This document shows positions 2,515 to 17,981 of a stretch of DNA of 64,000 nucleotides, in pieces; within the stretch, counting starts at the first letter, position 1, and the number at the start of each line of letters is the position of its first letter. The stretch lies in assembly GCA_050014195.1 (NCBI GenBank), contig JBEKDT010000001.1:149341-213340 (forward strand). Reading direction: 5' to 3'. The translations under genes and the position numbers were made by a program. Under the pieces are notes generated by a model. It was not told where the DNA came from. It ran no database searches and saw only the letters and a program-made list of their open reading frames with translations. Origin of the DNA: Desulfomonilia bacterium. Lineage in GTDB: Bacteria; Desulfobacterota; Desulfomonilia; UBA1062.

Positions 2515-2522
2515 GACAAGAT

Positions 2523-3593: not shown

Positions 3594-3652
3594 ACCGAAC
3601 AATCGGCTCCAGCGGACGCGGTGAAACGCGCCGCTGACCCATGCCGTTCGGC
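3594..3652 (+). repeat. attC 3
   Basis: R'' ACCGAAC (revcomp of GTTCGGT), L'' cagcggacg, L' gccgctgac, R' GTTCGGC. Confidence 0.85.
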
Positions 3653-3668
3653 AGGTGAGGCGCTTATA

Positions 3669-4640: not shown

Positions 4641-4684
4641 GTCGGTGGGTTCAATCTGCCAACTGCGCGTGCTGATAGCGATAA

Positions 4685-4743
4685 GCCGAACCAGTAAATT
4701 CAGCGGACGCAAAAAGCCGCGCCGCTGATGCCCACCGTTCGGT
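4685..4743 (+). repeat. attC 4
   Basis: R'' GCCGAAC (revcomp of GTTCGGC), L'' cagcggacg, L' gccgctgatgc, R' GTTCGGT. Confidence 0.85.
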
Positions 4744-4764
4744 GTCTAAGGAGGAGGCGTAATA

Positions 4765-5013
4765 ATGAATGGGAATAAAGGTGACCACCCATTAACAGAT
4801 ATCCTTATCCATAATATTGAAGTCTATGGCAAAGAAGCAGATGATCTGATTCGTAAGATTAGTTCCTTATCAAGCAGGAGAGAACTAGATGAGTGGTGGG
4901 AAAAGGAAATTAACTGGTCATCAGATAAAACACTAGCCTTACAGAAATCTCAATTGAGATACGAAGAACTTCTTGATCGAGCAAGAAAAAGTGGATGGGA
5001 AATTGATGAGTAA
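4765..5013 (+). CDS. hypothetical 82-aa protein; cassette 5
   Basis: Strong RBS AAGGAGGAGG. The ORF fills the cassette between attC4 and attC5. Confidence 0.6.
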   Translation: MNGNKGDHPLTDILIHNIEVYGKEADDLIRKISSLSSRRELDEWWEKEINWSSDKTLALQKSQLRYEELLDRARKSGWEIDE

Positions 5014-5015
5014 TC

Positions 5016-5109
5016 ACCGAACAAGCAAATCCAGCGGACCACTGGGGCCGTTTGTCCTTGCTGATTCAACGCTCACCTGCCCCAGTGGCCGCTGATCCGC
5101 ACGTTAGCC
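5016..5109 (+). repeat. attC 5 (long variant, ~94 bp)
   Basis: R'' ACCGAAC, extended stem ccagcggaccactgggg / ccccagtggccgctgat, R' GTTAGCC. Confidence 0.8.
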
Positions 5110-5116
5110 AGGAGAA

Positions 5117-5998
5117 GTGATGAATTATTTCTCATACAATACTGATGGTGGGCAACGTAGGTTCGATGTCCTAATCAAAAAAGGACTAGCTGCAACTAGT
5201 GGAGATGAGAAGTTTGGTAAACAACTTGGCAAGCTTAATATAGATGACATTCTTCTCATGTATGAGGATGGATTAGGAATTGTTGCCATCGGAGAAGTTC
5301 AAGAAGAATGGGACGGGAAACCTTATAGTAAACCCATATACTATATTCCCGGTAAAGAGTTTCCCGAAGGTGCAAATGAATATAGAATAAAGGTCAAATG
5401 GTTTCTAAATATCTCTGATTCTCCATTGAGCGTTAAGGAACTAAAAGAGCGTATTGGTTACATTCCACGTGGTGCAGTAACACCATTCATTAAATGGAGG
5501 TATGAGATTGAAAAAATTATTGCTGAACTTAGAGCTCGCAACCCAGAAACTGTTCAAGATGCTATTGATGATCTTGAATCTCATAAAAGAGAGTTTAAGT
5601 TACTCGATAAAACTGAGCAAGAGTCAATTATCAAAAGCCGAATTGGCCAAGGGATATTTCGAGAAGAGCTTATCAAAATCTGGGGTAGCTGTTCTGTAAC
5701 CGGGCTAACCAATCTTTCTCTGTTGCGGGCTTCTCATATAAAACCATGGCGGGAGTGCTCTAATCAGGAACGCTTAGATCCGATGAACGGACTTTTACTG
5801 CATCCTACTTTGGATCATTTGTTTGATTCTGGATTTGTCACATTTGATGCTGATGGGAAAATCCTTATATCAAGGAAGTTATCGGAAAAAGATGTTGAGA
5901 TCCTGCATATTGACCAAAATAGTTATTTGAGGATAATGCCACGAAGGTTAAAGAACTACATGCAGTATCATCGAAAGAATGTTTTTAAACCTGGCTAA
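5117..5998 (+). CDS. HNH (HNH_2-type) endonuclease fused to an N-terminal EVE/PUA-like putative modified-base-binding domain; cassette 6
   Basis: C-terminal motif LLRASHIKPW...NGLLLHPTLDHLFDSGFVTF is typical of the HNH_2 nuclease family. The N-terminal ~140 aa (DDILLMYEDGLGIVAIGEV ... YRIKVKW) has an EVE-like pattern. RBS GGAGAAG. Confidence 0.65.
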   Translation: MMNYFSYNTDGGQRRFDVLIKKGLAATSGDEKFGKQLGKLNIDDILLMYEDGLGIVAIGEVQEEWDGKPYSKPIYYIPGKEFPEGANEYRIKVKWFLNISDSPLSVKELKERIGYIPRGAVTPFIKWRYEIEKIIAELRARNPETVQDAIDDLESHKREFKLLDKTEQESIIKSRIGQGIFREELIKIWGSCSVTGLTNLSLLRASHIKPWRECSNQERLDPMNGLLLHPTLDHLFDSGFVTFDADGKILISRKLSEKDVEILHIDQNSYLRIMPRRLKNYMQYHRKNVFKPG

Positions 5999-6049
5999 CC
6001 AGCCACTTCAGCCGACGGGCTACGCCCGCGGCTGACCGGCACGTTGGGC
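5993..6049 (+). repeat. attC 6
   Basis: R'' GGCTAAC (revcomp of GTTAGCC), L'' cagccgacgg, L' gcggctgac, R' GTTGGGC. Confidence 0.8.
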
Positions 6050-6101
6050 ATAGAATCTGCGGGGACCACCGTTTCCTCGCTTTTTCAAAGGAGAATTCAA
6101 T

Positions 6102-6416
6102 ATGCGTTGGAATCATTACGTCTCTTACTTTTTTGGCGGAGCCTTTCTCACAAATGCGATCCCGCATTTTGTGAGCGGCGTTACAGGGCACCCTTTCCAA
6201 AGCCCTTTTGCCTCTCCCCCGGGGCAAGGGCTCTCTTCCGCCGTGGTGAATGTGCTTTGGGGCTCGCTCAACCTTGTTATCGGCTACTTGCTCGTATGCC
6301 GCATTGGACAATTTGAGTTGCGTCGGACAAGGCATGTTCTCATTGCGGGATTGGGGGGCCTACTCATGGCCGTGATGCTTGCGCATGTATTTGGTCGCTT
6401 CTATGGGGGGCTCTGA
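6102..6416 (+). CDS. small integral membrane protein (104 aa); cassette 7
   Basis: Three hydrophobic segments. RBS AAAGGAGAA. Confidence 0.6.
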   Translation: MRWNHYVSYFFGGAFLTNAIPHFVSGVTGHPFQSPFASPPGQGLSSAVVNVLWGSLNLVIGYLLVCRIGQFELRRTRHVLIAGLGGLLMAVMLAHVFGRFYGGL

Positions 6417-6433
6417 AATATGGGAAACGATTT

Positions 6434-6496
6434 GCCCAACAATTCATTCCAGCGGACGGGCCACACGGTGGCCCGCCGCTGAATTTGTCGTTGGGC
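6434..6496 (+). repeat. attC 7
   Basis: R'' GCCCAAC (revcomp of GTTGGGC), L'' cagcggacgg, L' gccgctgaa, R' GTTGGGC. Confidence 0.85.
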
Positions 6497-6532
6497 ATAA
6501 TACGTAATTTATGATTCTTAGGGAGAACTATC

Positions 6533-7333
6533 ATGAAAGTTCTAGCGCTCAATGGAAGTCTTCGGGGTGACAGGGGAGCTACAGGTAAGATTCTTCAGAG
6601 TATGGGTGCGGGCGTCGAGAGGGCAGGTGGAATTTGGAATGTGGTTCATCTTTCGGAACTAAAGATTGAAACTTGCCGCGCATGCAATCACTGTCAGAGA
6701 ACAAAAACTTATAAATGTATCTTTGACGGTAAAGACGACGCCGAAGAGATCTTCAACAAGATGAGGGGTACGGATATTCTGATTTATGCATCTCCCGTTT
6801 ATGTGTTTGGTGTGTCAAGTCTTCTCAAACGTTTTCTTGAGAGAATTCATTCTCGCGCTCCTGTTGCGGAGATTCTATTAACGAAATCCGGATTATTCTT
6901 TCATGCCACAGATCAATCACTTTCAGGCAAACCTTTCATTTCCATAGTAGTGTGCGACAATATTGAAAATCTCACAGTTCGCAATACGAAAGAGTACTTC
7001 CGAATTTTTGGACGCTTCATGGACGCGCCACATGTGGCACATATGGAACGTCGGAGTGCGGCGGCATGGATGGCCGCACTGGAAGGAACCGGCAAACAGG
7101 CGAAAAATAATGCAGAGAACGTTCTGGCTGCCTATGTACGCGTGGGAGAGGAATTGGTGTTAAAAGGAAGCATCTCGAGAAAATCGAAGAAAATTACAGA
7201 GCGGCCTTTCATAAAAATTCCACTTCCGGTGCGTATGGGACGGCACATTCCAGCATTCAAACCTTTTATTGAAAAGGAAGTTCGCAGACGGTCGAGTAAA
7301 ATAAGCAGCATGATTGGAGTAAAAGGAGAGTAA
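6533..7333 (+). CDS. iron-sulfur flavoprotein (Isf-like, NADPH-dependent FMN reductase fold); cassette 8
   Basis: MKVLALNGSLRGD N-terminus of the flavodoxin-like reductase family, plus the compact Cys motif CRACNHCx7C. RBS AGGGAGAA. Confidence 0.65.
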   Translation: MKVLALNGSLRGDRGATGKILQSMGAGVERAGGIWNVVHLSELKIETCRACNHCQRTKTYKCIFDGKDDAEEIFNKMRGTDILIYASPVYVFGVSSLLKRFLERIHSRAPVAEILLTKSGLFFHATDQSLSGKPFISIVVCDNIENLTVRNTKEYFRIFGRFMDAPHVAHMERRSAAAWMAALEGTGKQAKNNAENVLAAYVRVGEELVLKGSISRKSKKITERPFIKIPLPVRMGRHIPAFKPFIEKEVRRRSSKISSMIGVKGE

Positions 7334-7358
7334 ATGTGGACGGTTCTACCAGTGGCTG

Positions 7359-7421
7359 GCCGAACCAGTCAATCTAGCTGACCCGGCGCAAGCGCCGGGC
7401 AGTTGATCTCCGCCGTTATGC
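7359..7421 (+). repeat. attC 8
   Basis: R'' GCCGAAC (one mismatch to revcomp of GTTGGGC), L'' tagctgacccggcgc, L' gcgccgggcagttgatc, R' GTTATGC. Confidence 0.75.
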
Positions 7422-7446
7422 ACCTCCAGTTTCAATATTTCGAGCA

Positions 7447-7475
7447 TTGTTAATAATGACAGTTAAGGCTATATT
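7447..7475 (+). promoter_or_regulatory. cassette-internal sigma70-like promoter for brnTA
   Basis: TTGTTA, 17-bp spacer, TATATT, located ~20 bp upstream of the BrnT start. Confidence 0.45.
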
Positions 7476-7494
7476 AAATGTGAAATGAGGAAGC

Positions 7495-7776
7495 ATGCTT
7501 ATTTTTGAGTGGGACCCAGAGAAAGCAAAAAGTAACTTAAAGAATCACAGGGTGTCCTTCGATGAAGCGAGTACTGTTTTCAGCGATACTATGTCTTTGA
7601 CAATTCATGATCCTCTCCATTCAGATGAAGAAGATAGATTTGTCATTATCGGGAATTCATACAAGAACCGTCTTGTACTGGTTGTTCATGTCGAGAGGGG
7701 CAACAGAATAAGGATTATCAACGCAAGGAAAGCGACAAGGAAGGAAAAGAAACAATATGAAGAGAATGAAAACTGA
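7495..7776 (+). CDS. brnT: BrnT-family (DUF497) type II toxin ribonuclease; cassette 9
   Basis: MLIFEWDPEKAKSNLKNHRVSFDEASTVF...RIINARKATRKEKK matches the BrnT signature. It overlaps the downstream antitoxin ORF. Confidence 0.8.
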   Translation: MLIFEWDPEKAKSNLKNHRVSFDEASTVFSDTMSLTIHDPLHSDEEDRFVIIGNSYKNRLVLVVHVERGNRIRIINARKATRKEKKQYEENEN

Positions 7777-7966
7777 TCCAGAGATGTTGGAAGAATATGA
7801 TTTCAGCAAAGGTATCAGGGGAAAATATGCACAAAAGTATTCAGAAGGAACAAACGTTGTTGTAATTGAACCTGATGTTTCAAAGTTTTTCCCTGATCAT
7901 GATTCTGTAAATCAAGCTCTCAGGTCTTTAGCTGACATCATCAAAGGGCAGAAAAAAACTGCATAA
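7757..7966 (+). CDS. brnA: BrnA-family antitoxin; cassette 9
   Basis: EYDFSKGIRGKYA motif of BrnA antitoxins. A 20-nt overlap with brnT gives the toxin-first operon typical of BrnTA. Confidence 0.7.
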   Translation: MKRMKTDPEMLEEYDFSKGIRGKYAQKYSEGTNVVVIEPDVSKFFPDHDSVNQALRSLADIIKGQKKTA

Positions 7967-8092
7967 CAAGCCAATGCACCGGACCGCAAACAGCTCGGGG
8001 GCATGCTTCCGGCCCTGCTCCGCCTTCAGTCCAGTGGTGCATTCTGGTTTGGTGCTCCGCTCCGTTTGCGGCAGGTGATCCGCACGTTGGGC
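7961..8092 (+). repeat. attC 9 (long variant, ~130 bp)
   Basis: R'' GCATAAC (revcomp of GTTATGC), L''-like ccggaccgcaaacag, L'-like ccgtttgcggcaggtgatccgc, R' GTTGGGC. Confidence 0.7.
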
Positions 8093-8110
8093 TCAACAGA
8101 GGATAATAAC

Positions 8111-8524
8111 ATGCTGAATAGATCTCTTATCATTGTGATATGTTTTTCATTGATTTCTTGTTCAAACCTTAGAGAAAATGAAAAGATCAATCAAAATAAT
8201 TATAAAAAAACTGATTCAGACGTGAAGCTTTTAGAGTTGTCAAAAGAGGCGTTAACAACATTTCTTAAAAGCCGTCTCACAGCATCTGGATGGACAATAA
8301 CAGTTAATCCTGACAAAAATATAGTTGAGACTAACTGGTATAGAGAACACAAAGGAGAGGTTGTTGTAAAATCTGAAATCAGGATTCATGAGGGACTTAT
8401 CCGTGTAGATGTATGGCAACGTGTTGGATTACTATTTACTTCTGATATTAAGAACGAAAGAACTAGATATTTTGAGTGGGCTATACAAAAACAAATAGAG
8501 AAAACACGTTCACAGTCTCAATAA
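8111..8524 (+). CDS. lipoprotein (138 aa); cassette 10
   Basis: Signal peptide with lipobox LISC. RBS GAGGA. The track start at 8003 lies inside attC9 and is rejected. Confidence 0.6.
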   Translation: MLNRSLIIVICFSLISCSNLRENEKINQNNYKKTDSDVKLLELSKEALTTFLKSRLTASGWTITVNPDKNIVETNWYREHKGEVVVKSEIRIHEGLIRVDVWQRVGLLFTSDIKNERTRYFEWAIQKQIEKTRSQSQ

Positions 8525-8526
8525 AA

Positions 8527-8583
8527 GCCCAACCATGGCATCCCCCGGACGGCTTACAGCCTCCGCTGATCCGCCCGTTATGC
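8527..8583 (+). repeat. attC 10
   Basis: R'' GCCCAAC (revcomp of GTTGGGC), L'' cccggacgg, L' ccgctgatccgc, R' GTTATGC. Confidence 0.85.
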
Positions 8584-8629
8584 AACGAAAGAAAAAGGCA
8601 TGTATCAGTAAATGAGGGTGGGGGTCATC

Positions 8630-9151
8630 ATGCAAAAAGAAGAAGATCACTCTGGAGAATTGGGCAAAAAATTTGCCGCTGTATGTGGCCTTTACTGTGA
8701 GGCGTGCTCATGGTTCATTGCCACCACTGAAGATCCTGAAAGGCTCAAAAGGCTTGCGGCACAATTGCATTTTTCGGAGGAAGAGAGCAAGTGCTATGGA
8801 TGCCGGTCGGACAAGAGGTTGCCTTATTGCGAGAAATGCAAGATGTTCGCTTGCGCAGCTGAACGAGGTATCGACTTTTGCAGCGAATGTGAAGAGTATC
8901 CCTGCGACGACCTAAAACAGTTTCAATCTGCAATGCCTCATCGGATCGAGCTTTGGGCCAATCTGGAACGAATCAAGTCTATTGGTTATAAACATTGGCT
9001 CAAGGAAATTCGGGAAAACTATGCCTGCCCACGGTGCCACATCATCAATTCCACCTACGACTTGAAATGTAGAAAGTGCGGCGAAGAGCCTAGCTGCAAT
9101 TACGTAGCCAAACACCAGCAGGTAATCGAGGAGTATTTGAAGAGTAGATGA
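8630..9151 (+). CDS. cysteine-rich DUF3795-like protein; cassette 11
   Basis: CGLYCEACSWF...CYGC...CEKCKMFACAAERGIDFCSECEEYPC pattern. The start may be 8612 or 8630. Confidence 0.6.
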   Translation: MQKEEDHSGELGKKFAAVCGLYCEACSWFIATTEDPERLKRLAAQLHFSEEESKCYGCRSDKRLPYCEKCKMFACAAERGIDFCSECEEYPCDDLKQFQSAMPHRIELWANLERIKSIGYKHWLKEIRENYACPRCHIINSTYDLKCRKCGEEPSCNYVAKHQQVIEEYLKSR

Positions 9152-9158
9152 TGGGGTC

Positions 9159-9256
9159 GCCGGGGTCTCAACATATGACAAATTTGTTGATTGTTGAGAC
9201 CCTGACCCCGGTGCTTCGCCCGACGTTTTGCCTGCCTGTGATTTGCGACGTTATGT
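9159..9256 (+). repeat. atypical recombination-site-like element (nested palindrome plus degenerate attC ending GTTATGT)
   Basis: Perfect nested palindrome ggggtctcaaca..acaaatttgt..tgttgagacccc (~9161-9213). It is followed by cgcccgacg / cctgtgatttgcgac (weak L''/L') and GTTATGT at 9250-9256. The expected R'' GCATAAC is absent. Confidence 0.4.
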
Positions 9257-9272
9257 GAAGGAGAATAAAAGA

Positions 9273-9692
9273 ATGAGAGATGCGAGCAAAACAATTGGCA
9301 ATCTGATCGAAAGAGCAAGCGTTTCTATTATCAGTTCCGTTGATGAAGACGGTTTTCCTAATTCAAAGGCAATGCTTCCACCGAGGAAAAGGGAAGGCAT
9401 AAAGCATATCTTCTTCACGACCAATACATCCTCAATGAGAGTAAGGCAATATCTCAATAACCCGAAAGCGTGCGTATATTTCTTTGATAATAGATTCTTC
9501 AAGGGCATTATGCTGAGGGGCACCATGGAAGTCCTGCATGATAGCGCATCTAAGGAAATGATCTGGAAGCATGGCGACGAAATGTATTATCCAAAGGGTG
9601 TAACTGATCCCGATTACTGCGTGCTCAGGTTCACTGCTCAAAGTGGAAGGTATTACAGCAATTTTAAATCTGAGAATTTTGAAGTTGAGTAG
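9273..9692 (+). CDS. pyridoxamine 5'-phosphate oxidase-like FMN-binding protein; cassette 12
   Basis: Split-barrel PNPOx-family pattern (SVDEDGFPNSKAM...ACVYFFD...MLRGTMEVL). RBS GAAGGAGAA. Confidence 0.6.
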   Translation: MRDASKTIGNLIERASVSIISSVDEDGFPNSKAMLPPRKREGIKHIFFTTNTSSMRVRQYLNNPKACVYFFDNRFFKGIMLRGTMEVLHDSASKEMIWKHGDEMYYPKGVTDPDYCVLRFTAQSGRYYSNFKSENFEVE

Positions 9693-9706
9693 AGACCCAA
9701 GCTATC

Positions 9707-9770
9707 ACATAACCAGCGCATCCAGGCAGACGCGTCGTGTCCGCCGCGCCGCTGATTCGCAATGTTCGGT
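9707..9770 (+). repeat. attC 12
   Basis: R'' ACATAAC (revcomp of GTTATGT at 9250; one mismatch to the revcomp of GTTATGC at 8577), L' gccgctgattcgc, R' GTTCGGT. Confidence 0.75.
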
Positions 9771-9904
9771 ACACTTGATTGGATCGTCATCGTGACAAGA
9801 GGGTGTTCTTTTGTTGCTGCATATCTGAGCGCTCATAGTTGTTTTCCGTTCGCTGCTTTTCAGGCGTACGGTCAGCCAATATAGAGAATGCTGGAGGATG
9901 AACC

Positions 9905-10198
9905 ATGAACGACAATTTCGAAAAGAGGCTTTGGGCCGCAGCGCTGGCAGGATGGTGGACCTTGCTGGTGGCCGCAGGGGTTCTGATGCTTCAGTGGATC
10001 GTCTACCTGCTGGTTATGTCCGGACGACCCATGTGGTTTCTTTCCCTCTGGGGGCCTGATGTCAGCTGGCATGACGTTCATAACATCTGGTTTCTGGGCT
10101 TAGGGTTCTTCAAGGTCTGCTTGCTACTTTTGGCGGTTGTGGTTCTCTGGCTTACCTTGTGGGCCAGGCGATTACGAAAAGGGGCTGGCAGTTCATGA
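9905..10198 (+). CDS. small membrane protein (97 aa); cassette 13
   Basis: Trp-rich hydrophobic helices. RBS GGAGGATGA. Preceded by a 135-nt untranslated leader. Confidence 0.55.
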   Translation: MNDNFEKRLWAAALAGWWTLLVAAGVLMLQWIVYLLVMSGRPMWFLSLWGPDVSWHDVHNIWFLGLGFFKVCLLLLAVVVLWLTLWARRLRKGAGSS

Positions 10199-10294
10199 AG
10201 TCTTGAATTCGCTCTCGCTCGCTTTTCCACAAACAGTCAGGTCGTCGCTGCGATCGCAATTAGAGAGCAAAGGACGGAGTTATCTCGTAAGTGC

Positions 10295-10314
10295 GCCCAA
10301 CTAGGGCGTTGGGT
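10295..10314 (+). repeat. minimal R''/R' inverted pair (possible attC remnant)
   Basis: GCCCAAC-tagggc-GTTGGGT with no L boxes. It sits between two ORFs that may belong to a single cassette. Confidence 0.3.
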
Positions 10315-10334
10315 CAAAGGAAGGAGATACAAGA

Positions 10335-10757
10335 ATGTTCAGAAGAATAGTGTGTTTTGCAGTCATTGGACTTGTCCTTGGTACTGCTGCTCTCATGGCT
10401 GACGAATCCGATAGGGGGAAGGCTGCAGTTGCTTCAGCTGAAGAATGGCTTGGAATTGTTGATGAAGGTAACTATATTGAGAGCTGGAAGGAATCGTCTG
10501 AATATTTTCAGCAAGCCATCAAACAGGATCAGTGGGAACAAGCAGTTCAGGCGGTACGGAAGCCCCTCGGCAAATTGGTTTCAAGGAAAGTGATGAGTGC
10601 CTCATACAGAACGTCTCTCCCGGGAGCACCCGATGGGCAGTATGTGGTAATCAAATTTAACACCTGGTTCGAGAATAAAAAATCAGCTATTGAGACAGTT
10701 ACTCCAAAGATGGACAAAGATGGGATGTGGAGAGTTTCCGGTTACTACATCAAATGA
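10335..10757 (+). CDS. secreted DUF4019-like protein; cassette 13/14
   Basis: Signal peptide, then EEWLGIVDEGNY..SW..S...FQ pattern. Strong RBS AAGGAAGGAGA. Confidence 0.55.
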   Translation: MFRRIVCFAVIGLVLGTAALMADESDRGKAAVASAEEWLGIVDEGNYIESWKESSEYFQQAIKQDQWEQAVQAVRKPLGKLVSRKVMSASYRTSLPGAPDGQYVVIKFNTWFENKKSAIETVTPKMDKDGMWRVSGYYIK

Positions 10758-10823
10758 AGACCAGACAATGGCATCCTCGCGGATGCGGGCTGCGCCAGCG
10801 CCGCTGATGCCTGGCTGTTCGAC
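10757..10823 (+). repeat. attC 14
   Basis: Degenerate R'' ACCAGAC (two mismatches to the revcomp of GTTCGGT at 9764), L'' catcctcgcggatgcggg, L' gcgccagcgccgctgatgc, R' GTTCGAC. Confidence 0.7.
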
Positions 10824-10831
10824 GGAGAGAA

Positions 10832-11500
10832 ATGAAGAAGAAAACATTGCTGAGTTGGAGTAGCGGGAAGGACAGCGCATGGGCGCTTCACCTGCTCCAA
10901 CAAGATCCGCAGATTGAGCTTCTCGGCATGTTTACTGTAATGAATCAAAAATACAGTCGTGTGTCGATGCACGCCACCCGGTTGGAGATGCTTCAGCGTC
11001 AAGCCGAGGCAGTAGGTCTGCCGATCCAAACGATCAGTCTTCCCGACCCGTGCACAAACGAGCAATACGACGCTATCATGCGACACTTCGTCACCGAGTC
11101 TGTCAACAAGGGGATTGAGTGCATGGCATTCGGAGATCTGTTCCTTGAGGACGTCCGAAAGTATCGGGAGAATCAACTGAAAGGGAGTGGGATCGATCCT
11201 CTTTTCCCGTTGTGGGGAATCCCCACGAGCGACCTGGCTGAGCAAATGTTGTCAGCAGGACTCGAAGCCTATGTCAGCAGTGTTGATCTCAAGAAATTGC
11301 CTTCGCGTTTTGCCGGACAAAAATGGTCAAGGGACTTGATTGTGGAATTTCCCAAGGATTGCGACCCATGTGGAGAGAACGGGGAAATCCACACGGTCGC
11401 CGTGGGCGGCCCGATGTTTCGGAAAACAGTCCTTGTCAAAGTCGGCGACGTGGTGAATCGAAAAGGATTTGCTTACGCTGACATCATTCCGATTAACTGA
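10832..11500 (+). CDS. PP-loop ATP pyrophosphatase of the MJ0570/Dph6-like family (ATP_bind_4); cassette 15
   Basis: N-terminal LLSWSSGKDS PP-loop. Length and architecture match diphthine-ammonia-ligase-like enzymes. Confidence 0.65.
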   Translation: MKKKTLLSWSSGKDSAWALHLLQQDPQIELLGMFTVMNQKYSRVSMHATRLEMLQRQAEAVGLPIQTISLPDPCTNEQYDAIMRHFVTESVNKGIECMAFGDLFLEDVRKYRENQLKGSGIDPLFPLWGIPTSDLAEQMLSAGLEAYVSSVDLKKLPSRFAGQKWSRDLIVEFPKDCDPCGENGEIHTVAVGGPMFRKTVLVKVGDVVNRKGFAYADIIPIN

Positions 11501-11507
11501 AACGACT

Positions 11508-11565
11508 GTCGAACCAAGGAGTGCAGGCGATGCGATACCCGCGAGCCTGACTCCTGCCGTTGGAG
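11508..11565 (+). repeat. attC 15
   Basis: R'' GTCGAAC (revcomp of GTTCGAC), L''-like gcaggcgatgcg, L' gcgagcctgactcc, R' GTTGGAG. Confidence 0.75.
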
Positions 11566-11572
11566 GTTTGCA

Positions 11573-12121
11573 ATGACCCAAGCATTGTTACTCATAGACA
11601 TTCAGAACGATTACTTCCCTGGCGGGGCAATGGAACTAGTGGGAAGTTCTCCTGCTGCGGCGCAGGCCGGGAAACTACTTCAGGCGTTCAGACAAAAAGC
11701 GCTGAGCGTTATCCACATCCAACACATCTCGACAAGACCAGGAGCGACCTTCTTTTTGCCGAATACCGCTGGGGTACAAATTCACGAGAGCGTAGCTCCC
11801 AACAGTGGCGAAACGGTCTTTCAGAAACACTACCCGAACAGCTTTCGTGAAACACGTCTGCTTGAGCACCTTCGTGAGAATCAAATCTCGCAGCTTGTGA
11901 TCGCAGGGATGATGACCCATATGTGCATTGACACTACCTCACGTGCTGCCACCGACCTTGGCTTCCCGTGCGTTCTGGCTCATGACGCATGCGCTACAAG
12001 AGCTCTGTCGTTTAATGGCGCTACTGTTTCTGCTCAGAGCGTACAAACAGCATTCCTCGCAGCCCTTAATGGCCTGTTTGCCGAAGTGCTGTCAGTGGAG
12101 GAAATATGCACCAACCTCTAA
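11573..12121 (+). CDS. isochorismatase-family cysteine hydrolase; cassette 16
   Basis: ALLLIDIQNDYF N-terminus, and a catalytic Cys in MMTHMCIDTT. Confidence 0.75.
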   Translation: MTQALLLIDIQNDYFPGGAMELVGSSPAAAQAGKLLQAFRQKALSVIHIQHISTRPGATFFLPNTAGVQIHESVAPNSGETVFQKHYPNSFRETRLLEHLRENQISQLVIAGMMTHMCIDTTSRAATDLGFPCVLAHDACATRALSFNGATVSAQSVQTAFLAALNGLFAEVLSVEEICTNL

Positions 12122-12178
12122 CGAGCTGATCCGGCAGACCGGGGCTAAGCCCCGCGCCGCTGATACCTGCCGTGAGAG
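12116..12178 (+). repeat. attC 16 (mutated R' box GTGAGAG)
   Basis: R'' CTCTAAC, L'' cagaccgggg, L' ccccgcgccgctgatacc. The R' reads cGTGAGAG, whereas GTTAGAG is expected from the next cassette's R'' CTCTAAC. Confidence 0.7.
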
Positions 12179-12190
12179 GGCAAGGACCCT

Positions 12191-12988
12191 ATGCAACCAG
12201 TGCAACAGAAATGGAATGCTGAGGATTACGCGAAGAATTCTTCGGCACAGCTACAGTGGGCGCAGGAGCTTATTTCAAAACTCTTCTTGCAGGGTTGCGA
12301 ATCTGTGCTTGATATCGGATGCGGAGATGGGAAGATCAGCGCCCAACTTGCGCTGGCTGCCAAGAACGGAAACGTGCTGGGCATTGATCTATCTGAAGAC
12401 ATGATTCGGCTTGCCTCAGAGCAGTTTCCTTCAGCGAAATACCCCAACCTGTCTTTCTTGCGTATGGACGCAACAGGCATTCGCCTTTCTGAGAGATTCG
12501 ACGTCGCATTCTCAAACGCCGCCCTTCATTGGGTGAAAAACCATATTGCAGTTCTTCGAGGCGTGCATGCCTGCCTCAAGTCCGGTGGCAAGATATTGTT
12601 TCAGATGGGCGGCCGCGGAAACGCAACTGAGGTTTTTGGCGCCATTGAGAAAGTTTTACGGCACCCTCGGTGGCGGCGGTACTATAAAGACTTCACACCA
12701 CCCTACCACTTTTATGGACCGGAAGAATATGAAGCCTGGCTATTGGAAAGCGGTTTTCGCTCGGTACGTGTTGAACTCGTGCCAAAAGATATGCAGCATG
12801 GTGCGGAGGGGTTTAAGGGTTGGCTACGGACAACTTGGTTCCCCTATACCGACCGCTTGCCGGTCGAACTGCGCGATGCCTTTCTTGCGGAAGTGGTCGA
12901 GACTTATACGGCGGTAAATCCGTTTGACGCTCTCGGCCATACACACGTCAAAATGGTCCGTTTGGAGGTCGAGGCGTATGCCCTCTAA
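12191..12988 (+). CDS. trans-aconitate methyltransferase (Tam)-like SAM-dependent methyltransferase; cassette 17
   Basis: W.AEDY...S..Q..WA N-terminus, SAM motif LDIGCGDG, and Tam-like length and C-terminal region. Confidence 0.65.
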   Translation: MQPVQQKWNAEDYAKNSSAQLQWAQELISKLFLQGCESVLDIGCGDGKISAQLALAAKNGNVLGIDLSEDMIRLASEQFPSAKYPNLSFLRMDATGIRLSERFDVAFSNAALHWVKNHIAVLRGVHACLKSGGKILFQMGGRGNATEVFGAIEKVLRHPRWRRYYKDFTPPYHFYGPEEYEAWLLESGFRSVRVELVPKDMQHGAEGFKGWLRTTWFPYTDRLPVELRDAFLAEVVETYTAVNPFDALGHTHVKMVRLEVEAYAL

Positions 12989-13040
12989 CAATTCGCTCAA
13001 CGCGGACGTGCAAAAGCGCCGGTTAGCTCAAACGTTATGT
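12983..13040 (+). repeat. attC 17
   Basis: R'' CTCTAAC, L'' cgcggacg, L' caaaagcgccgg, R' GTTATGT. Confidence 0.7.
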
Positions 13041-13059
13041 GGCAAATGGGAGAAGACAA

Positions 13060-13743
13060 ATGGCTTACACTTTGGAAAAAGTAGTTCCTTGGGGACGATC
13101 TTTCGACGAATATTTGGCAATGTTTGCATTGTCGGAAGAAGACCTTAGAAAGCGGTTACTAGGATGTGGAGACGGTCCCGCAAGCTTTAATTGTATGATG
13201 AAACGTCGTGGAGGCCATGTAGTTTCTGTCGATCCGATTTACACTTTCAGTGCCGGTGAAATAAGAAGTCGGATAGATGAAACATATGAAGAGGTTATGG
13301 AACAAGCTAGAAAAAACAAACATGAGTTCGTGTGGAGACATATCTCATCAGTTGATGAACTCGGCAAAGTTCGTATGTCTGCTATGAACGACTTTTTGTC
13401 TGATTATGCAGTAGGTTTAAAAGAAGGTCGTTATGTAGACGCGAGTTTGCCTACGCTTCCATTCTCAGATCGAGAATTTGACATTGCTTTATGTTCGCAC
13501 TTTCTCTTTCTTTACAGCGAGCACCTTTCAGAAGATTTTCATATCCAGTCAATTGAAGAACTCTGCCGAGTTGCATCTGAAGTAAGGATATTCCCTCTGT
13601 TGGAGTTGGGAGCCAAAGAATCAAGACATCTCAAGATAGTCGTGGATAGACTTGAAAAAGGTGGTTTTGTTGTCGATATGAAGAAAGTGCCTTATGAGTT
13701 TCAAAAAGGTGGAAACGAAATGTTGAGGGTTACAGCCACATAA
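13060..13743 (+). CDS. class I SAM-dependent methyltransferase; cassette 18
   Basis: LGCGDGPASFN motif I and acidic motif II. RBS GGGAGAAG before the ATG at 13060. Confidence 0.6.
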   Translation: MAYTLEKVVPWGRSFDEYLAMFALSEEDLRKRLLGCGDGPASFNCMMKRRGGHVVSVDPIYTFSAGEIRSRIDETYEEVMEQARKNKHEFVWRHISSVDELGKVRMSAMNDFLSDYAVGLKEGRYVDASLPTLPFSDREFDIALCSHFLFLYSEHLSEDFHIQSIEELCRVASEVRIFPLLELGAKESRHLKIVVDRLEKGGFVVDMKKVPYEFQKGGNEMLRVTAT

Positions 13744-13807
13744 CAAATCAATGCACCTGAGAGCAAATCGCTGTGCGATTTCCGGCAAGTGATTTCTGCC
13801 GTTGGAG
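13738..13807 (+). repeat. attC 18
   Basis: R'' ACATAAC (revcomp of GTTATGT), stem gagcaaatcgc / gcgatttc, R' GTTGGAG. Confidence 0.75.
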
Positions 13808-13824
13808 GTCCGTTGGAGATAACA

Positions 13825-14397
13825 ATGAATCAGAAAAAATATGCGCTGATCATAATTGATATGCAAAATGATTTTGTTTTATCTGGTACACCAGCGTGCG
13901 TTGCTGGTGCTTATGCCACGATCCCGTGTATAAAAAGGTTGCTTGATTTTTACAGGGCAAATGGATGGCCGGTATTTCATGTCATACGGGAATATCGTGC
14001 AGATGGAAGTGATATCGAGTTTACCCGCCTCCAGGGTTTTCTTAACAACAAGCGCTATGCAGTGCCTGGCACGAAAGGTTGTGAAATTGTGGAAAGCCTT
14101 GCACCAGTTGAAGGAGAGTATAGGGTCATAAAGAATAGATTCAGTGGTTTTATGAATACGGAGTTAGATTTTATGTTGAGAAGGGTCGGGGCAACGCACC
14201 TGGTCATATGCGGAACTCAGTATCCTAACTGTGTCCGGGCTACTATCTTTGATGCCATTGCATATGGGTATCCTGTAATCAACATTACCGATGCCACATC
14301 AGCACAGACTCCACAAATTGCAGATGCAAATATCGTAGATTTAAAGAATATCGGAGTTGACTGTATTTCGTTAGATGAGTTTATGAAATTATTCTGA
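13825..14397 (+). CDS. isochorismatase-family hydrolase (second, divergent copy); cassette 19
   Basis: ALIIIDMQNDF and LVICGTQYPNCVRAT catalytic-Cys region. Confidence 0.75.
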   Translation: MNQKKYALIIIDMQNDFVLSGTPACVAGAYATIPCIKRLLDFYRANGWPVFHVIREYRADGSDIEFTRLQGFLNNKRYAVPGTKGCEIVESLAPVEGEYRVIKNRFSGFMNTELDFMLRRVGATHLVICGTQYPNCVRATIFDAIAYGYPVINITDATSAQTPQIADANIVDLKNIGVDCISLDEFMKLF

Positions 14398-14411
14398 AAT
14401 GGGAGAGAATC

Positions 14412-14472
14412 TCTCCAACAAACGAAGCACCGGACGGGGCAAGCGCCAGGCCGATGATCTCCGTCGTTATGC
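14412..14472 (+). repeat. attC 19
   Basis: R'' CTCCAAC (revcomp of GTTGGAG), L'' caccggacgg, L' gccgatgatc, R' GTTATGC. Confidence 0.85.
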
Positions 14473-14503
14473 GCCAGTATTAGTAGAATATAGGTGATAG
14501 CAA

Positions 14504-14989
14504 ATGGATGATCTTACTATCCGGAATGTAGAGCCGACTGATTATCAGCCTGTCATTTCTGTGCTGAATGACTGGTGGGGCGGTCGGAATATGAGTGACA
14601 TGCTCCCGAAACTCTTCTTTGTTCACTTTTGTGAGACAAGCTTTGTGGCTGAGGCTGAAGGAAAGATCGTCGGGTTCCTCATAGGTTTTTTATCACAGAC
14701 TTTCCCGGATCAGGCCTATATACACTTTGCCGGGGTTCACCCAGATTATCGAAGGAAAGGATTAGCGGGCAATCTCTACAGGCATTTTTTTGAGATTTCC
14801 CGGAACCATGGCTGCAGGGTCGTCCACTGCGTAACCTCGCCTGTTAATAAAGCTGCAATCGCATTTCACCTTCGGATGGGGTTCAGCATTGAACAGGGTG
14901 ATAAGCTCATCGAAGGTATTTCAGTTGCTGAGAACTATGATGGGTACGGTAGCGACCGGGTTTTGTTCATAAAATTGCTCGGCACATAA
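14504..14989 (+). CDS. GNAT-family N-acetyltransferase; cassette 20
   Basis: Acetyl-CoA binding motif VHPDYRRKGLAGNL. Confidence 0.75.
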   Translation: MDDLTIRNVEPTDYQPVISVLNDWWGGRNMSDMLPKLFFVHFCETSFVAEAEGKIVGFLIGFLSQTFPDQAYIHFAGVHPDYRRKGLAGNLYRHFFEISRNHGCRVVHCVTSPVNKAAIAFHLRMGFSIEQGDKLIEGISVAENYDGYGSDRVLFIKLLGT

Positions 14990-15049
14990 CAAGGGCATCC
15001 AGGCGGAAGCGGGCTGCCCAGCGCCGCCGCTGATGCACACCGTTATCTC
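14984..15049 (+). repeat. attC 20 (R' box GTTATCT)
   Basis: R'' GCATAAC (revcomp of GTTATGC), L'' ccaggcggaagcggg, L' gccgccgctgatgc, R' GTTATCT. Confidence 0.8.
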
Positions 15050-15067
15050 CCAATATTCAATCCCTGC

Positions 15068-15110
15068 TTGACATTCAAAATGGTATGATTAATTATCATA
15101 CCGGAGGCGG
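15068..15110 (+). promoter_or_regulatory. mazEF cassette promoter with palindromic operator
   Basis: TTGACA at 15068-15073. Near-perfect palindrome GTATGATTAATTATCATAC (15083-15101) overlaps the -10 region, and RBS GGAGG lies 5 nt before the ATG. Confidence 0.5.
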
Positions 15111-15113
15111 AAA

Positions 15114-15356
15114 ATGAGATCAGCCAAGGTTGCAATCACGATTGATGACGAAACCCTTCAAAGGCTTGACCGTCTTGTGAAGGAACATGTTTTTCCTAAT
15201 CGAAGCAAGGCGATACAAGAGGCCGTACAGGATAAAATTAAACGTATTGAGAAAACCAGGCTCGCCCGGGAATGCGCAAAGCTTGACCCTTTATATGAGC
15301 AAGCACTTGCTGACGAAGGAATTTCTGAGGATATGAACGAATGGCCAGAATATTAA
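15114..15356 (+). CDS. mazE: ribbon-helix-helix (MazE/CopG-like) antitoxin; cassette 21
   Basis: 80 aa with an N-terminal RHH pattern ([19 protein letters not shown]). It overlaps the downstream toxin gene. Confidence 0.7.
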
Positions 15357-15679
15357 GAGGTGATATCCGCCTCGCTGATCTGAATCCCACAAAAGGGAAA
15401 GAACAAGCCGGCATCAGACCCGTACTTATCTTAAGTCATGATGTCTTCAATGAAAGATCGGGAACTGTTATAGCCATGGCAATCACAAGCCAGCCGCAGC
15501 GCGCCGGATTTCCTCTCACATTTGAACTTGAGTCCGACAAGCTCCCGAAAAAATCATGGGTGAAAATCAGCCAAGTAAGAACACTGTCTGTACAGCGTAT
15601 TGGGAAGAAGATCACCAATCTACCACCTGAAATCCTCGACCACCTTATTGATGGTCTGGGTGAGATTATTGGAAGATAA
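15341..15679 (+). CDS. mazF: MazF/PemK-family endoribonuclease toxin; cassette 21
   Basis: [25 protein letters not shown]...AITSQ pattern of MazF/PemK. Confidence 0.8.
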
Positions 15680-15736
15680 CTTCTCACTGCACCAGACCGC
15701 AGCTTACGCCGCGGCCGGTGATCTCACGCGTTAGAG
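15673..15736 (+). repeat. attC 21
   Basis: R'' AGATAAC is the exact revcomp of the unusual upstream R' GTTATCT. L'' cagaccgcagc, L' gcggccggtgatc, R' GTTAGAG. Confidence 0.85.
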
Positions 15737-15749
15737 CCCTCACCAACAA

Positions 15750-16157
15750 ATGATAGAGTCAATAAGTCACATTACTTTCATCGTCAAAGATGTTGAAAGA
15801 ACGGGGCATTTCCTGCGATCGATCTTCGATGCCGAAGAGGTCTATGACAGTGCGGGGAAGAACTTTTCAATTTCATACGAGAAGTTCTTTATTATCGGGG
15901 GTGCTTGGATAGCGGTTATGCAAGGTGAGCCATTGTCGGAGCGTTCTTATAACCATGTTGCATTCAAGGTATCCGACTCTGAGTTTGATGAGTATGTATC
16001 AAGACTAAAGCGACTTGGGATCGAGGTGGAACCAGGTCGTGACCGGGTTAGTGGTGAGGCCCGGTCAATATATTTCTATGATTACGACAACCATCTCTTC
16101 GAGCTGCACACCGGCACGCTTCATGAGAGGCTGGTGCATTATTCCAAAGGGAAATAA
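15750..16157 (+). CDS. fosX: FosX/FosB-like fosfomycin-resistance protein (VOC/glyoxalase superfamily); cassette 22
   Basis: 135 aa, co-linear with Listeria FosX as recalled from memory. Shared blocks include SHITFIVKD, YNHVAF, PGRDRV.GE.RSIYFYD.DNHLFELHTGTL and ERL..Y. Confidence 0.65.
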   Translation: MIESISHITFIVKDVERTGHFLRSIFDAEEVYDSAGKNFSISYEKFFIIGGAWIAVMQGEPLSERSYNHVAFKVSDSEFDEYVSRLKRLGIEVEPGRDRVSGEARSIYFYDYDNHLFELHTGTLHERLVHYSKGK

Positions 16158-16159
16158 AG

Positions 16160-16212
16160 CTCTAACAAAAGCCTGCGGACGGCTACAGCCGCCGCTGATG
16201 CGTGTCGAAAAT
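16160..16212 (+). repeat. attC 22 (last site of the array; degenerate R')
   Basis: R'' CTCTAAC (revcomp of GTTAGAG), L'' ctgcggacgg, L' gccgccgctgatgc, then gtgtcgaaaa in place of a clean GTTRRRY. Conserved core-genome genes begin immediately after. Confidence 0.75.
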
Positions 16213-16257
16213 ACGTCTTAATAGCTTCAATTGACCCATTGCATAAAGGTTTGTTAT

Positions 16258-17409
16258 ATGGACACCATGAAGCCATCCAACACTGCCAGGACCATACAGC
16301 CTTTTCTGGTCATGGATGTCATGGAAAAGGCAAACACCCTTGCCGCGTCCGGCCGGGACATCATCCACCTGGAGGTGGGTGAGCCTGATTTCGACACCCC
16401 GGAGTGCATACGCATAGCAGCGGCGAATGCCATGCATCAGGGCAGGACCCACTATACCGACTCGCTCGGCATCCCGGAGCTGAGGAATGCCCTCAAAGAA
16501 CATTATGAAATGACCTACCACGTTAGTATCGATGAGAATTGTATCGTGGTGACTGCAGGCTCCTCTCCCGCACTCCTCATGGCCATATCCTGCCTTGTGG
16601 ATGCGGGTGACGAGGTCATTATGACCGACCCGTACTATGCCTGCTACCCGAACTTCGTCAAGATCTTAGGCGCGAAACCCCGCCTCATCCGCACGGGAAG
16701 CTCGGACAGATTCCAGCTGGACCCCGGAAAGGTAAAACGGAACATAACCGGCGTCACGAAAGCCCTGCTCATCAACTCACCGGCAAACCCTACGGGTATC
16801 TGCCTGGACGCCGATCACCTGAAGGCTTTAAGCGGGCTGGCCATCCCCATCATATCCGATGAGATCTACCATGGGCTGGTCTATGCCGGGCAGCAGCACA
16901 CCATACTCGAATTTACGGACAATACGATTGTGATCAACGGATTCTCCAAGGCCTATGCCATGACGGGCTGGAGGCTCGGCTGGGCGGTCTTCCCCAGGGA
17001 ACTCATCCGAACGGCCCAGAAGATCCAGCAGAACCTTATGATCTGCGCCCCATCCATTGCCCAGTGGGGCGGCGTCGCCGCACTTACCAAGGCCGGCACG
17101 GATGTAGAGAACATGCATCAGACCTTTGCCCGGCGAAGGAAGGTCATGCTCTCCGAGATGGCGAAGTTCGGCTTCAACGTAGAGGTGGAGCCCACGGGTG
17201 CATTCTATGTACTCGTGAATATGGGTGCGTACACAAATGACTCCCGCTCATTTGCCATGGAAACCCTGGAGCATACCGGTGTCGGGGTGACCCCGGGTAT
17301 CGATTTCGGGCCCGGTGCTGAAGGCTACATCCGGTTCTCCTATGCCAACTCGGAAAAGAATATCGTGGAAGGCATCTCCCGTGTCGCCTCATACTTAAAA
17401 AGCCTATGA
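16258..17409 (+). CDS. class I/II pyridoxal-phosphate-dependent (aspartate-type) aminotransferase
   Basis: HLEVGEPDFDTP, SFSKAYAMTGWRLG (PLP-Lys region), ~384 aa. Confidence 0.8.
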   Translation: MDTMKPSNTARTIQPFLVMDVMEKANTLAASGRDIIHLEVGEPDFDTPECIRIAAANAMHQGRTHYTDSLGIPELRNALKEHYEMTYHVSIDENCIVVTAGSSPALLMAISCLVDAGDEVIMTDPYYACYPNFVKILGAKPRLIRTGSSDRFQLDPGKVKRNITGVTKALLINSPANPTGICLDADHLKALSGLAIPIISDEIYHGLVYAGQQHTILEFTDNTIVINGFSKAYAMTGWRLGWAVFPRELIRTAQKIQQNLMICAPSIAQWGGVAALTKAGTDVENMHQTFARRRKVMLSEMAKFGFNVEVEPTGAFYVLVNMGAYTNDSRSFAMETLEHTGVGVTPGIDFGPGAEGYIRFSYANSEKNIVEGISRVASYLKSL

Positions 17410-17981
17410 AGGTGAAGATCCGGGACGCCGCCTTTGCAGGGGTCTTCCCCCATAATAGTGCAGGCCTGCCTCAGTATGCCATTGCAGGCAGGTCGAACGT
17501 GGGCAAGTCTTCGCTGATCAACAAGCTGCTGAACAGGAAGTCGCTCGTGAGGACGAGCAAGGTGCCGGGCAAGACCAGGGCCGTGAACCTTTTCAAAGTC
17601 GACCTGGTTGACCTTCCCTCCCTATACCTTGTCGACCTGCCGGGATATGGCTATGCCAAGGTTTCCAAGACCATCAGTCATGAGTGGAAAGAGCAGATCG
17701 CCAAATACTTCTCGAACAATCATGAACTCAAGCTTGTCATGCTGCTCGTGGACATCCGAAGGGATCTTCAAGATGAGGAACGCCTGCTCATGGACCTCAT
17801 CAATAAAACCAAGGCCAAGGTCGTGCTTGTAGCTACCAAGACCGATAAGCTGGGGTATGCTCAGATGCTCAAACGCACATCGGAGCTTTCAAGGCAGTGT
17901 GGGTTGACCCCGGTTATCACCTCGTCTGCCACGGGAGACGGCATGGAAGAACTCTGGAGACTCATCATCTCTTCCCTGTAG
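17406..17981 (+). CDS. engB: ribosome biogenesis GTP-binding protein EngB/YsxC
   Basis: GRSNVGKSSLINKL (G1), DLPGYGYA (G3), TKTDKL (G4). Confidence 0.85.
   Translation: MKVKIRDAAFAGVFPHNSAGLPQYAIAGRSNVGKSSLINKLLNRKSLVRTSKVPGKTRAVNLFKVDLVDLPSLYLVDLPGYGYAKVSKTISHEWKEQIAKYFSNNHELKLVMLLVDIRRDLQDEERLLMDLINKTKAKVVLVATKTDKLGYAQMLKRTSELSRQCGLTPVITSSATGDGMEELWRLIISSL

Follow-up and report, generated by a model that had tools for sequence, protein, structure and literature searches.

A FosX-family gene on the promoterless terminal cassette of an integrase-less attC array in a peatland Desulfomonilia bacterium

We analyzed a stretch of 64,000 nucleotides (hereafter the window) from a Desulfomonilia bacterium (GenBank assembly GCA_050014195.1, contig JBEKDT010000001.1, positions 149,341 to 213,340 of the forward strand), in which a short gene, fosX, lies at the end of a long array of integron-type gene cassettes. 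Overall, our data support that fosX encodes a FosX-family enzyme and is carried on the promoterless terminal cassette of an integrase-less 16-kb array in a peatland Desulfomonilia, a reading to which we give a probability of about 0.8. The features that matter most for this reading are listed below, with coordinates counted from the first letter of the window and a slash marking the crossover point of a recombination site.

15750-16157, + strand: fosX open reading frame (ORF), start codon ATG at 15750, stop codon TAA at 16155-16157, 135 aa; a member of the FosX/FosE/FosI family, predicted to be a Mn(II)-dependent fosfomycin hydrolase
15731-16207, + strand: fosX cassette, 477 bp, consisting of a 19-nt leader (TTAGAGCCCTCACCAACAA) without a Shine-Dalgarno sequence, the ORF, and its own attC up to the crossover G
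16160-16213, + strand: degenerate terminal attC (a22), with an intact R'' box CTCTAAC and the upper L''/L' stem kept, an L'' arm about 3 nt short, and an R' box that reads GAAAATA where GTTRRRY is expected
140-15042, + strand: about 19 co-oriented gene cassettes, each with a terminal attC (a1-a20), recognized with an attC model and from the chain of R'' and R' boxes
82-145, + strand: attI-like left end, with an AT-rich imperfect repeat at 82-132 and then the core G/TTAGGC at 139-145, where cassette 1 starts

The fosX gene and its product

The fosX product was found to match the NCBIfam model NF000222 (FosX/FosE/FosI fosfomycin resistance hydrolase equivalog) over its full length, query residues 5-131 lying on profile positions 1-127, with a score of 207.5 bits against a curated cutoff of 170 (E 6.7e-62). 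Pfam identified only a generic Glyoxalase/VOC domain in it. Alignments to both of the crystallised FosX enzymes were gapless, spanning residues 1-134 for that of M. loti (PDB 1r9c, E 1.7e-53) and residues 1-132 for that of Listeria (PDB 2p7k, E 2.8e-53). These results bear out the FosX identity that an earlier note on this DNA, made from its letters alone, had proposed. The blocks of residues quoted there were all found (SHITFIVKD at residue 6, YNHVAF at 67, and RSIYFYDYDNHLFELHTGTLHERL at 105), the best matches were to FosX and not to non-Fos glyoxalases, and the four residues it had named, His7, His69, Glu118 and Glu44, are all in place. The identity of the query is 60% to M. loti FosX, 60% to Listeria FosX, 59% to FosE and 56% to FosI, and it is as distant from each of these named members as they are from one another. 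An identical protein is already present in GenBank under the PGAP name FosX/FosE/FosI family hydrolase, from a Desulfomonilia metagenome-assembled genome (MAG).

The Mn(II) ligand positions His7, His69 and Glu118 are kept in the gapless alignment and are invariant, or nearly so, in 120 homologues. Glu44, the general base of FosX that is absent from FosA and FosB, is conserved as well, as is the hydrogen-bonding Tyr108. At the columns that are invariant in the four named enzymes (two FosX, FosE and FosI) the query differs at five, and each of these differences is conservative. Within the motif of the catalytic region (residues 40-48) the query reads SISYEKFFI against SLSREKFF(L/V), so that E44, K45, F46 and F47 are kept and L41I and R43Y are changed. 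The window protein thus has Tyr at residue 43, where the enzymes of Listeria and M. loti have Lys or Arg; most members of the environmental clade (90 of the 120 homologues) also carry Tyr43. The AlphaFold model of the query (pLDDT 85.1) shows the VOC fold with its two beta-alpha-beta-beta-beta modules. When it was compared with the PDB using Foldseek, the top 22 matches were all FosX chains (1r9c and 2p7k-q; TM scores 0.77-0.89), ahead of those of FosB and FosA.

In FosX enzymes, water is added to C1 of fosfomycin in a Mn(II)-dependent reaction that relies on an essential Glu general base and uses no thiol (PMC4790336; 10.1101/2024.11.04.621841). By analogy with the family, from which its Mn dependence and chemistry are predicted, the fosX product would be a small, dimeric VOC (glyoxalase-like) metalloenzyme with Mn(II) held by His7, His69 and Glu118. 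Glu44, acting as the general base, would then direct water onto C1 of fosfomycin and open the epoxide to an inactive diol without a thiol co-substrate.

Two smaller features of the gene were noted. The window protein is 135 aa long and nearly all of its relatives are 134 aa; its extra C-terminal Lys stems from a 1-nt difference at the stop (GGG-AAATAA at 16152-16157, compared to GGGTAAAAA at 3400-3405 of the related locus L020, which is introduced below), and the added residue is probably neutral. In addition, a terminator-like hairpin is present on the sense strand at 16040-16067, inside fosX codons 97-110, with a 10-bp stem that includes 6 GC pairs and is followed by a T-rich run. This hairpin may be a simple by-product of conserved Arg, Gly and Ser codons.

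The fosX cassette and the attC array

The 5' boundary of the fosX cassette, G(15730)/TTAGAG, is the crossover of the preceding attC, and the cassette's own R'' box, CTCTAAC (16160-16166), begins 3 nt past the stop codon and has 0 mismatches to the reverse complement of the cassette's TTAGAG. The same G/TTAGAG boundary was observed in homologous fosX cassettes at the loci L011/L012, L013 (Smithella), L020, L025 (Desulfobacteraceae) and L091, whose genes are 58-95% identical. Where preserved in those relatives the R'' box is (C/T)TCTAAC, and the neighbouring genes differ between arrays, which points to mobility of this cassette type. The fosX cassettes of relatives directly adjoin attC sites that are supported by the model (26.7-45.7 bits). 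Based on these features, the sequence identifies fosX as a true integron-type cassette. Cassette carriage is a trait of a Desulfobacterota-centred fosX clade and not of the whole FosX family. This is because, at 62 more distant loci (~60% identity; cyanobacteria, Bacillota, Listeria), an attC signal was found at only two. The fosX cassette belongs to a lineage with the core sites G/TTAGAG and CTCTAAC that is spread among the attC arrays of anaerobic Desulfobacterota. A shared cassette ancestry with the clinical genes fosE and fosI was also considered. Both cassette types start with TTAGnGCCC, a match of 9 nt only, but the leaders, the attC types and the layouts of stop codon and R'' differ, and we do not adopt this connection, which is unproven.

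All of the attC-like repeats are on the + strand; they extend from ~1.3 to 16.2 kb and form a 16-kb array of ~21 cassettes. An ungapped hairpin finder recovered no real attC, as the stems contain extrahelical bases and spacers, and manual reading was used instead together with a covariance model. Twenty sites were set by hand and tested by comparing the R'' box of each site with the reverse complement of the R' box of the site before it, as the six bases past a crossover G belong to the next cassette. At 19 of the 20 sites there was at most one mismatch, and at 13 the agreement was exact. RNAalifold on a MAFFT alignment gave 3 pairs only, and the canonical pairing of the R and L boxes was therefore set by hand and validated by counting pairs. 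With two unpaired extrahelical positions allowed for, 77% of the cells of this scheme pair, in comparison to 24-41% when the partners are slid, and compensatory changes were observed in 10 of its 18 pairs. A covariance model built from 17 sites, with the site after fosX (a22) excluded, detected 18 attC sites in the window at E <= 5e-4 and no credible site from 16.3 to 64 kb. The fosX cassette is therefore the last of the array, as the earlier note had stated in calling it the distal one. Scans with Rfam and for tRNAs found nothing associated with the array.

IntegronFinder defines a cluster of attC sites lacking an integron integrase (CALIN) as two or more attC sites on the same strand, spaced by less than 4 kb, with no integron integrase in the vicinity. 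The array qualifies as such a cluster, a class with a reported mean of 5 attC sites (Cury et al. 2016, PMC4889954). The sites number 18 supported by the model and 3 read manually, all on the + strand with a maximum spacing of ~1.2 kb. The array is of CALIN type and of the size of a sedentary integron (~21 sites), and it is not a complete integron, because neither an integron integrase nor a remnant of one could be detected in the 10 kb upstream or the 48 kb downstream. The term integron, as used in the earlier note, is to be read here as an attC array of CALIN type. Gene calls in the 10 kb left of the window included no member of the Phage_integrase family, there was no candidate tyrosine-recombinase ORF at 18-64 kb, and a tblastn search with IntI1 for integrase remnants gave chance-level matches only, with E values no better than 2. 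The 10-kb left flank instead carries genes for a rubrerythrin-like protein, an M48 peptidase, a GAF protein, GAPDH, CarB, a C1 peptidase and HsdR, followed by ~450 bp of non-coding DNA before the junction.

At the left end of the array, GTTAGGC and the R'' box of cassette 1, GCCTAAC, are exactly complementary. The junction was not matched by the attC model and has an imperfect inverted/direct repeat in AT-rich DNA, and on these grounds we regard it as a putative attI. The left junctions of three arrays (window 128-145; L013 4975-4992; L009 4975-4992) were seen to be alike over ~12 nt beside the crossover and over nothing further upstream. They read ATAGTAATTG/TTAGGC in the window, ATATTAATTG/TTAGAGC in L013 (Smithella) and ATATTAATTG/TCAAAGC in L009, and no integrase was found within 5-10 kb of any of the three. 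This shared stretch may represent a conserved attI-type core that belongs to a Desulfobacterota integron class whose integrase was lost or is encoded elsewhere.

At the other end of the array, a22 differs considerably from the sites before it. Its R'' and R' boxes are mismatched at 5 of 7 positions, the folded bottom strand has no R-box helix, and the covariance score was 16.2 bits (E 0.11), from a local match to model positions 12-56 only (window 16168-16206). Independent full-length attC sites scored 25.5 (a5), 31.3 (L011), 26.7 and 27.4 (L013), 41.7 (L020) and 45.7 bits (L025). With its R' box lost, the fosX cassette is probably no longer excisable, as far as can be predicted from the site itself. 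The right end of the array reads G/AAAATAC (16207-16214) where G/TTRRRY is expected, and is identical in L020 (3459-3466). This junction may have arisen by a point mutation, a deletion or a secondary-site event, and a metagenome scan for the chromosomal flank beyond G/AAAATAC gave 0 matches. The genes that follow the array are listed here; to the right of engB there are 46 kb of core genes (e.g., dnaE, guaB, rpsA and prs).

16258-17409, + strand: class I/II aminotransferase (Pfam Aminotran_1_2, 199.8 bits), starting ~50 bp past the crossover G of the fosX cassette
17406-17981, + strand: EngB/YihA-type GTPase, engB (Pfam MMR_HSR1, 78.1 bits)

Cassette turnover, expression and other cassettes of the array

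Comparison with a sister genome, Desulfomonilia bacterium SPRUCE 367 (locus L020), revealed how the array has changed around fosX. The source contigs are from peatland metagenomes of the Joint Genome Institute (JGI). In L020 the fosX protein is 95% identical, and both the junction behind the gene, GTGTCG/AAAATACGTC, and the aminotransferase gene beyond it are the same as in the window; the a22 defect therefore predates the split between the window and L020. Upstream of fosX the homology breaks exactly at the crossover G/TTAGAG. A GNAT cassette lies directly upstream of fosX in L020 and the 688-bp mazEF cassette of the window is absent, with the break exactly at the G/TT crossover points. Further to the left, the five cassettes at 10806-14489 of the window are replaced by 2.2 kb of other DNA in L020 (213-2426). 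The DUF4019 and GNAT cassettes are common to both and 92% identical, and identity over the shared cassettes as a whole is 92-96%. These differences are the footprint of recent integrase-type gain and loss of cassettes, with fosX staying put. That whole cassettes differ at attC crossovers is evidence of recent integrase-type activity despite the lack of a local intI. Between the window and L020, the a22 stretch differs at 6 of 50 positions (12%), whereas the ORF diverges by 4.2% and the 50 bp beyond a22 by 4%. These numbers are small, but they hint at a relaxed constraint acting on the recombination site. In outline, fosX would have been anchored beside the aminotransferase gene while the cassettes upstream of it came and went.

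The cassette directly upstream of fosX in the window carries a toxin-antitoxin pair and ends in a well-formed attC.

15043-15730, + strand: mazEF-type toxin-antitoxin cassette (Pfam RHH_1, 24.3 bits; PemK_toxin, 102.1 bits)
15068-15096, + strand: sigma-70-like mazEF promoter, TTGACA-17-AATTAT, a 10/12 match that overlaps a perfect palindrome
15114-15356, + strand: RHH antitoxin
15341-15679, + strand: MazF/PemK toxin
15674-15736, + strand: attC a21, 63 nt, 38.3 bits

Transcription of fosX would have to come from outside its cassette, by read-through from the mazEF promoter across the 63-nt attC. This source is the most plausible one, because the fosX cassette has no room for a promoter and that of mazEF is the only sigma-70-like promoter nearby (none other was found within 14.9-16.4 kb), but we put it at somewhat less than an even chance. 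In two unrelated arrays, the window (15043-15730) and the Desulfobacteraceae MAG locus L025 (2277-2981), the fosX cassette was observed right after a toxin-antitoxin cassette that has its own TTGACA promoter; the pair in L025 is an antitoxin/PIN-like one. This arrangement could be a coincidence, or it could be a route to the transcription of a promoterless cassette.

Among the products of the array, that of fosX alone scored above the curated cutoff of a resistance family. The other cassettes include the following.

3585-4640: Mrr-like nuclease
5117-5998: HNH protein
7495-7950: BrnT/BrnA-type toxin-antitoxin pair
11573-12121 and 13825-14397: two different isochorismatase-family hydrolases
12191-12988 and 13039-13743: two S-adenosylmethionine (SAM) methyltransferases

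Cassette 3 (2523-3584) encodes a 353-aa protein that passes the equivalog cutoff for RsgA, ribosome small-subunit-dependent GTPase A (TIGR00157, 159 bits against 100). A housekeeping-type ribosome-biogenesis GTPase is unusual as an integron cassette. Additional irregularities were noted along the array. A collapsed attC is present at 10295-10314 (GCCCAAC-TAGGGC-GTTGGGT, 12.2 bits), and a perfect 9-bp inverted repeat, GGTCTCAAC...GTTGAGACC, lies at 9160-9200 between DUF3795 and PNPOx genes and was not matched by the attC model. The R' box of attC a16 (12172-12178) is non-canonical, GTGAGAG with GTG for GTT, and the R'' box of the next cassette, CTCTAAC, still fits it with one mismatch.

Function of fosX and relation to known systems

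Several observations weigh against the reading proposed at the outset, that of a FosX-family enzyme on a terminal, integrase-less cassette. The query is ~40% diverged from every characterised member of the family, and it has SISYEKFF where the characterised enzymes have SLS(R/K)EKFF, a difference around the catalytic motif. The FosX of M. loti acts promiscuously, is a poor hydrolase of fosfomycin and probably has its role in phosphonate metabolism (PMC6122793). The low score of a22 was judged partly against sites that had trained the model. An integrase could be present elsewhere in the genome, our search having spanned 10 kb to the left and 48 kb to the right. Expression of fosX is uncertain, its cassette having neither a promoter nor a Shine-Dalgarno sequence and lying ~15.6 kb from the attI-like end. 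Lastly, the mazEF cassette is absent upstream of fosX in L020, and read-through from its promoter is therefore not a general explanation.

With regard to phenotype, we lean towards fosfomycin resistance as the outcome predicted from the sequence, and no further than that, because M. loti FosX shows that membership of the family is no guarantee of useful resistance. The alternative with the most in its favour, which we nevertheless consider unlikely, is that the enzyme was selected for a role other than resistance, such as one on another epoxide or phosphonate or in phosphonate metabolism, with fosfomycin hydrolysis being weak or incidental. The M. loti enzyme, which is encoded in a phn operon, sets a precedent for this, and the query is equally far (60%) from it and from the efficient Listeria enzyme. 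The change from R/K43 to Y also adjoins the catalytic Glu. Several homologues of ~60% identity on plasmids or chromids adjoin phnM or phnI. These were noted among the plasmid matches (H1-H3 and H19), which are located next to these C-P lyase genes on large replicons, plasmids or chromids, of Leptolyngbya and Shinella; their neighbours echo the phn-operon context of M. loti and suggest a metabolic role for that branch of FosX. However, there are no phn genes near the window fosX or near any cassette-borne relative that we examined, and the query keeps every catalytic and substrate-contact residue that has been reported for the family. Furthermore, 4 of 4 cassette-borne FosX-family genes that have been tested gave resistance, though they had been selected on fosfomycin. 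Those genes (fosE2, fosI2, fosI3 and fosP) came from libraries of environmental class 1 cassettes, and in E. coli they conferred minimum inhibitory concentrations (MICs) of 32-256 ug/ml that were insensitive to phosphonoformate (Kieffer et al., 10.1101/2024.11.04.621841).

It is improbable, in our estimation, that fosX is a silent and decaying passenger, an unexpressed distal cassette without a current function. Such a state would agree with the lack of a promoter and a Shine-Dalgarno sequence, with the position of the cassette as the one farthest from the attI-like end, and with the degeneration of its attC. Several results speak against it. The exact protein occurs in one context only, which was the same in all 23 of the 23 contigs read, and the ORF is intact in every one of them. 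The ratio of non-synonymous to synonymous substitution rates (dN/dS) was low in each of five comparisons (0.18, 0.08, 0.11, 0.07 and 0.11), namely 0.18 against the 95%-identical sister copy in L020 and 0.07-0.11 against the distant copies in L011, L013, L009 and L014. This indicates that fosX is under purifying selection and is a working gene. It was also retained in two genomes whose other cassettes turned over. Moreover, divergence is about 3 times higher in the attC region than in the ORF (12% against 4.2%), and the constraint is therefore on the gene and not on the whole region.

That fosX might instead be an ordinary chromosomal gene that happens to lie beside an attC array, and not a cassette at all, is very improbable. 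In favor of this are the poor attC downstream (16.2 bits, E 0.11) and the housekeeping genes that fosX directly adjoins. On the other side, the 5' edge of fosX falls exactly at a G/TT crossover, its own R'' is a perfect complement of that 5' end, homologues with the same leader and R'' bear intact attC sites in other arrays, and the homology with the sister genome ends exactly at the crossover point. The GC content at third codon positions (GC3) is 0.51 in fosX in comparison to 0.72 in the chromosomal genes to the right, including the neighbouring core gene.

Finally, a thiol-dependent transferase of FosB or FosA type, suggested by the earlier note's wording 'FosB-like', shares the VOC fold and the metal ligands and is represented by the next-best fold matches (FosB structures, TM ~0.8, 30-38% identity), but it can be dismissed, as the FosB, FosM, FosA and other thiol-transferase models remained at 37-102 bits where the cutoffs are 171-305 (among those for FosB, the highest was NF003152 with 102.3 against 171, and the others gave 65-90 against 240-305), the FosX-specific Glu44 is in place, and identity is 60% to FosX but ~33% to FosB.

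Comparison with known systems places the FosX-family cassette of the window in context. It is like the Listeria (2p7k-2p7q) and M. loti (1r9c) FosX enzymes in its family model, its length, the gapless alignment at 60% identity, the residues H7, H69, E118 and E44, and the predicted fold. It differs in its genetic setting, as Listeria FosX is a core chromosomal gene and M. loti FosX a phn-operon gene, whereas the window gene is on an integron-type cassette. FosB and FosA also have the VOC fold, a length of ~140 aa and a Mn/Mg-dependent opening of the fosfomycin epoxide, but they use bacillithiol, cysteine or glutathione and lack Glu44, and the query falls below all of their curated cutoffs. FosX-family integron cassettes as such are already established, since fosE and fosI are found in class 1 integrons on clinical plasmids. 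Together with fosE2, fosI2, fosI3 and fosP, these share with the window gene the format of a single-gene, promoterless cassette with no Shine-Dalgarno sequence and a GTTAG-type core. The genes of this group, from fosE to fosP, have been shown to confer fosfomycin resistance. The window FosX, however, is only 56-59% identical to FosE and FosI, and the attC sites of fosE and fosI are of another type, with an R'' that overlaps the stop codon, unlike the R'' 3 nt past the stop in the window. In addition, cassettes of the fosE/fosI type are mobile and belong to integrase-equipped class 1 integrons of Gammaproteobacteria, often near the front of short arrays, in contrast to the terminal position of the window fosX, with its decayed attC, in a long, integrase-less chromosomal array of anaerobic Desulfobacterota.

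The array as a whole resembles the CALIN and sedentary arrays described previously (PMC4889954). It is chromosomal, has more than 19 similar, co-oriented attC sites less than 4 kb apart and no intI or pseudogene within 10 kb, and has toxin-antitoxin cassettes interspersed among others of mostly unknown function. It differs from a typical CALIN in that it retains an attI-like left junction, which is not needed in a CALIN made by rearrangement, and in its unusually large size relative to the mean of 5 attC sites.

Fosfomycin serves as a last-resort drug, and phosphonoformate, the inhibitor of FosA and FosB, does not block FosX-family hydrolases; the natural whereabouts of the family are thus of some surveillance value. 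Our data indicate that FosX-type cassettes are spread in the attC arrays of strictly anaerobic Desulfobacterota of peat and sediment, away from clinical settings. The window copy is poorly placed to escape, as it has no local integrase, a decayed attC and 56-59% identity to the clinical genes. The suggestion in the earlier note that the cassette is a plausible reservoir form is thus weak for this copy; relatives with intact attC sites are present in other arrays.

These findings leave current understanding unchanged. The resistance family is a known one, and the protein had already been named correctly in GenBank. Their interest lies mainly in the fixed terminal cassette and in the turnover of the array. 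We hypothesize, at slightly less than even odds, that fosX is an integron cassette in the course of domestication into the core chromosome. As the oldest and terminal cassette, it would have lost its R' box before two Desulfomonilia species diverged, and purifying selection would since have maintained it beside a housekeeping gene while other parts of the array swapped cassettes. As part of the same proposal, the cassettes with GTTAGAG and CTCTAAC would form an undescribed, Desulfobacterota-wide fosX-cassette lineage, an environmental pool of fosfomycin hydrolases in anaerobes, separate from the clinical fosE and fosI cassettes. The gain and loss of cassettes between sister genomes, together with a terminal cassette that stayed fixed, provides a clean example from nature of an array that turned over and was then stabilised.

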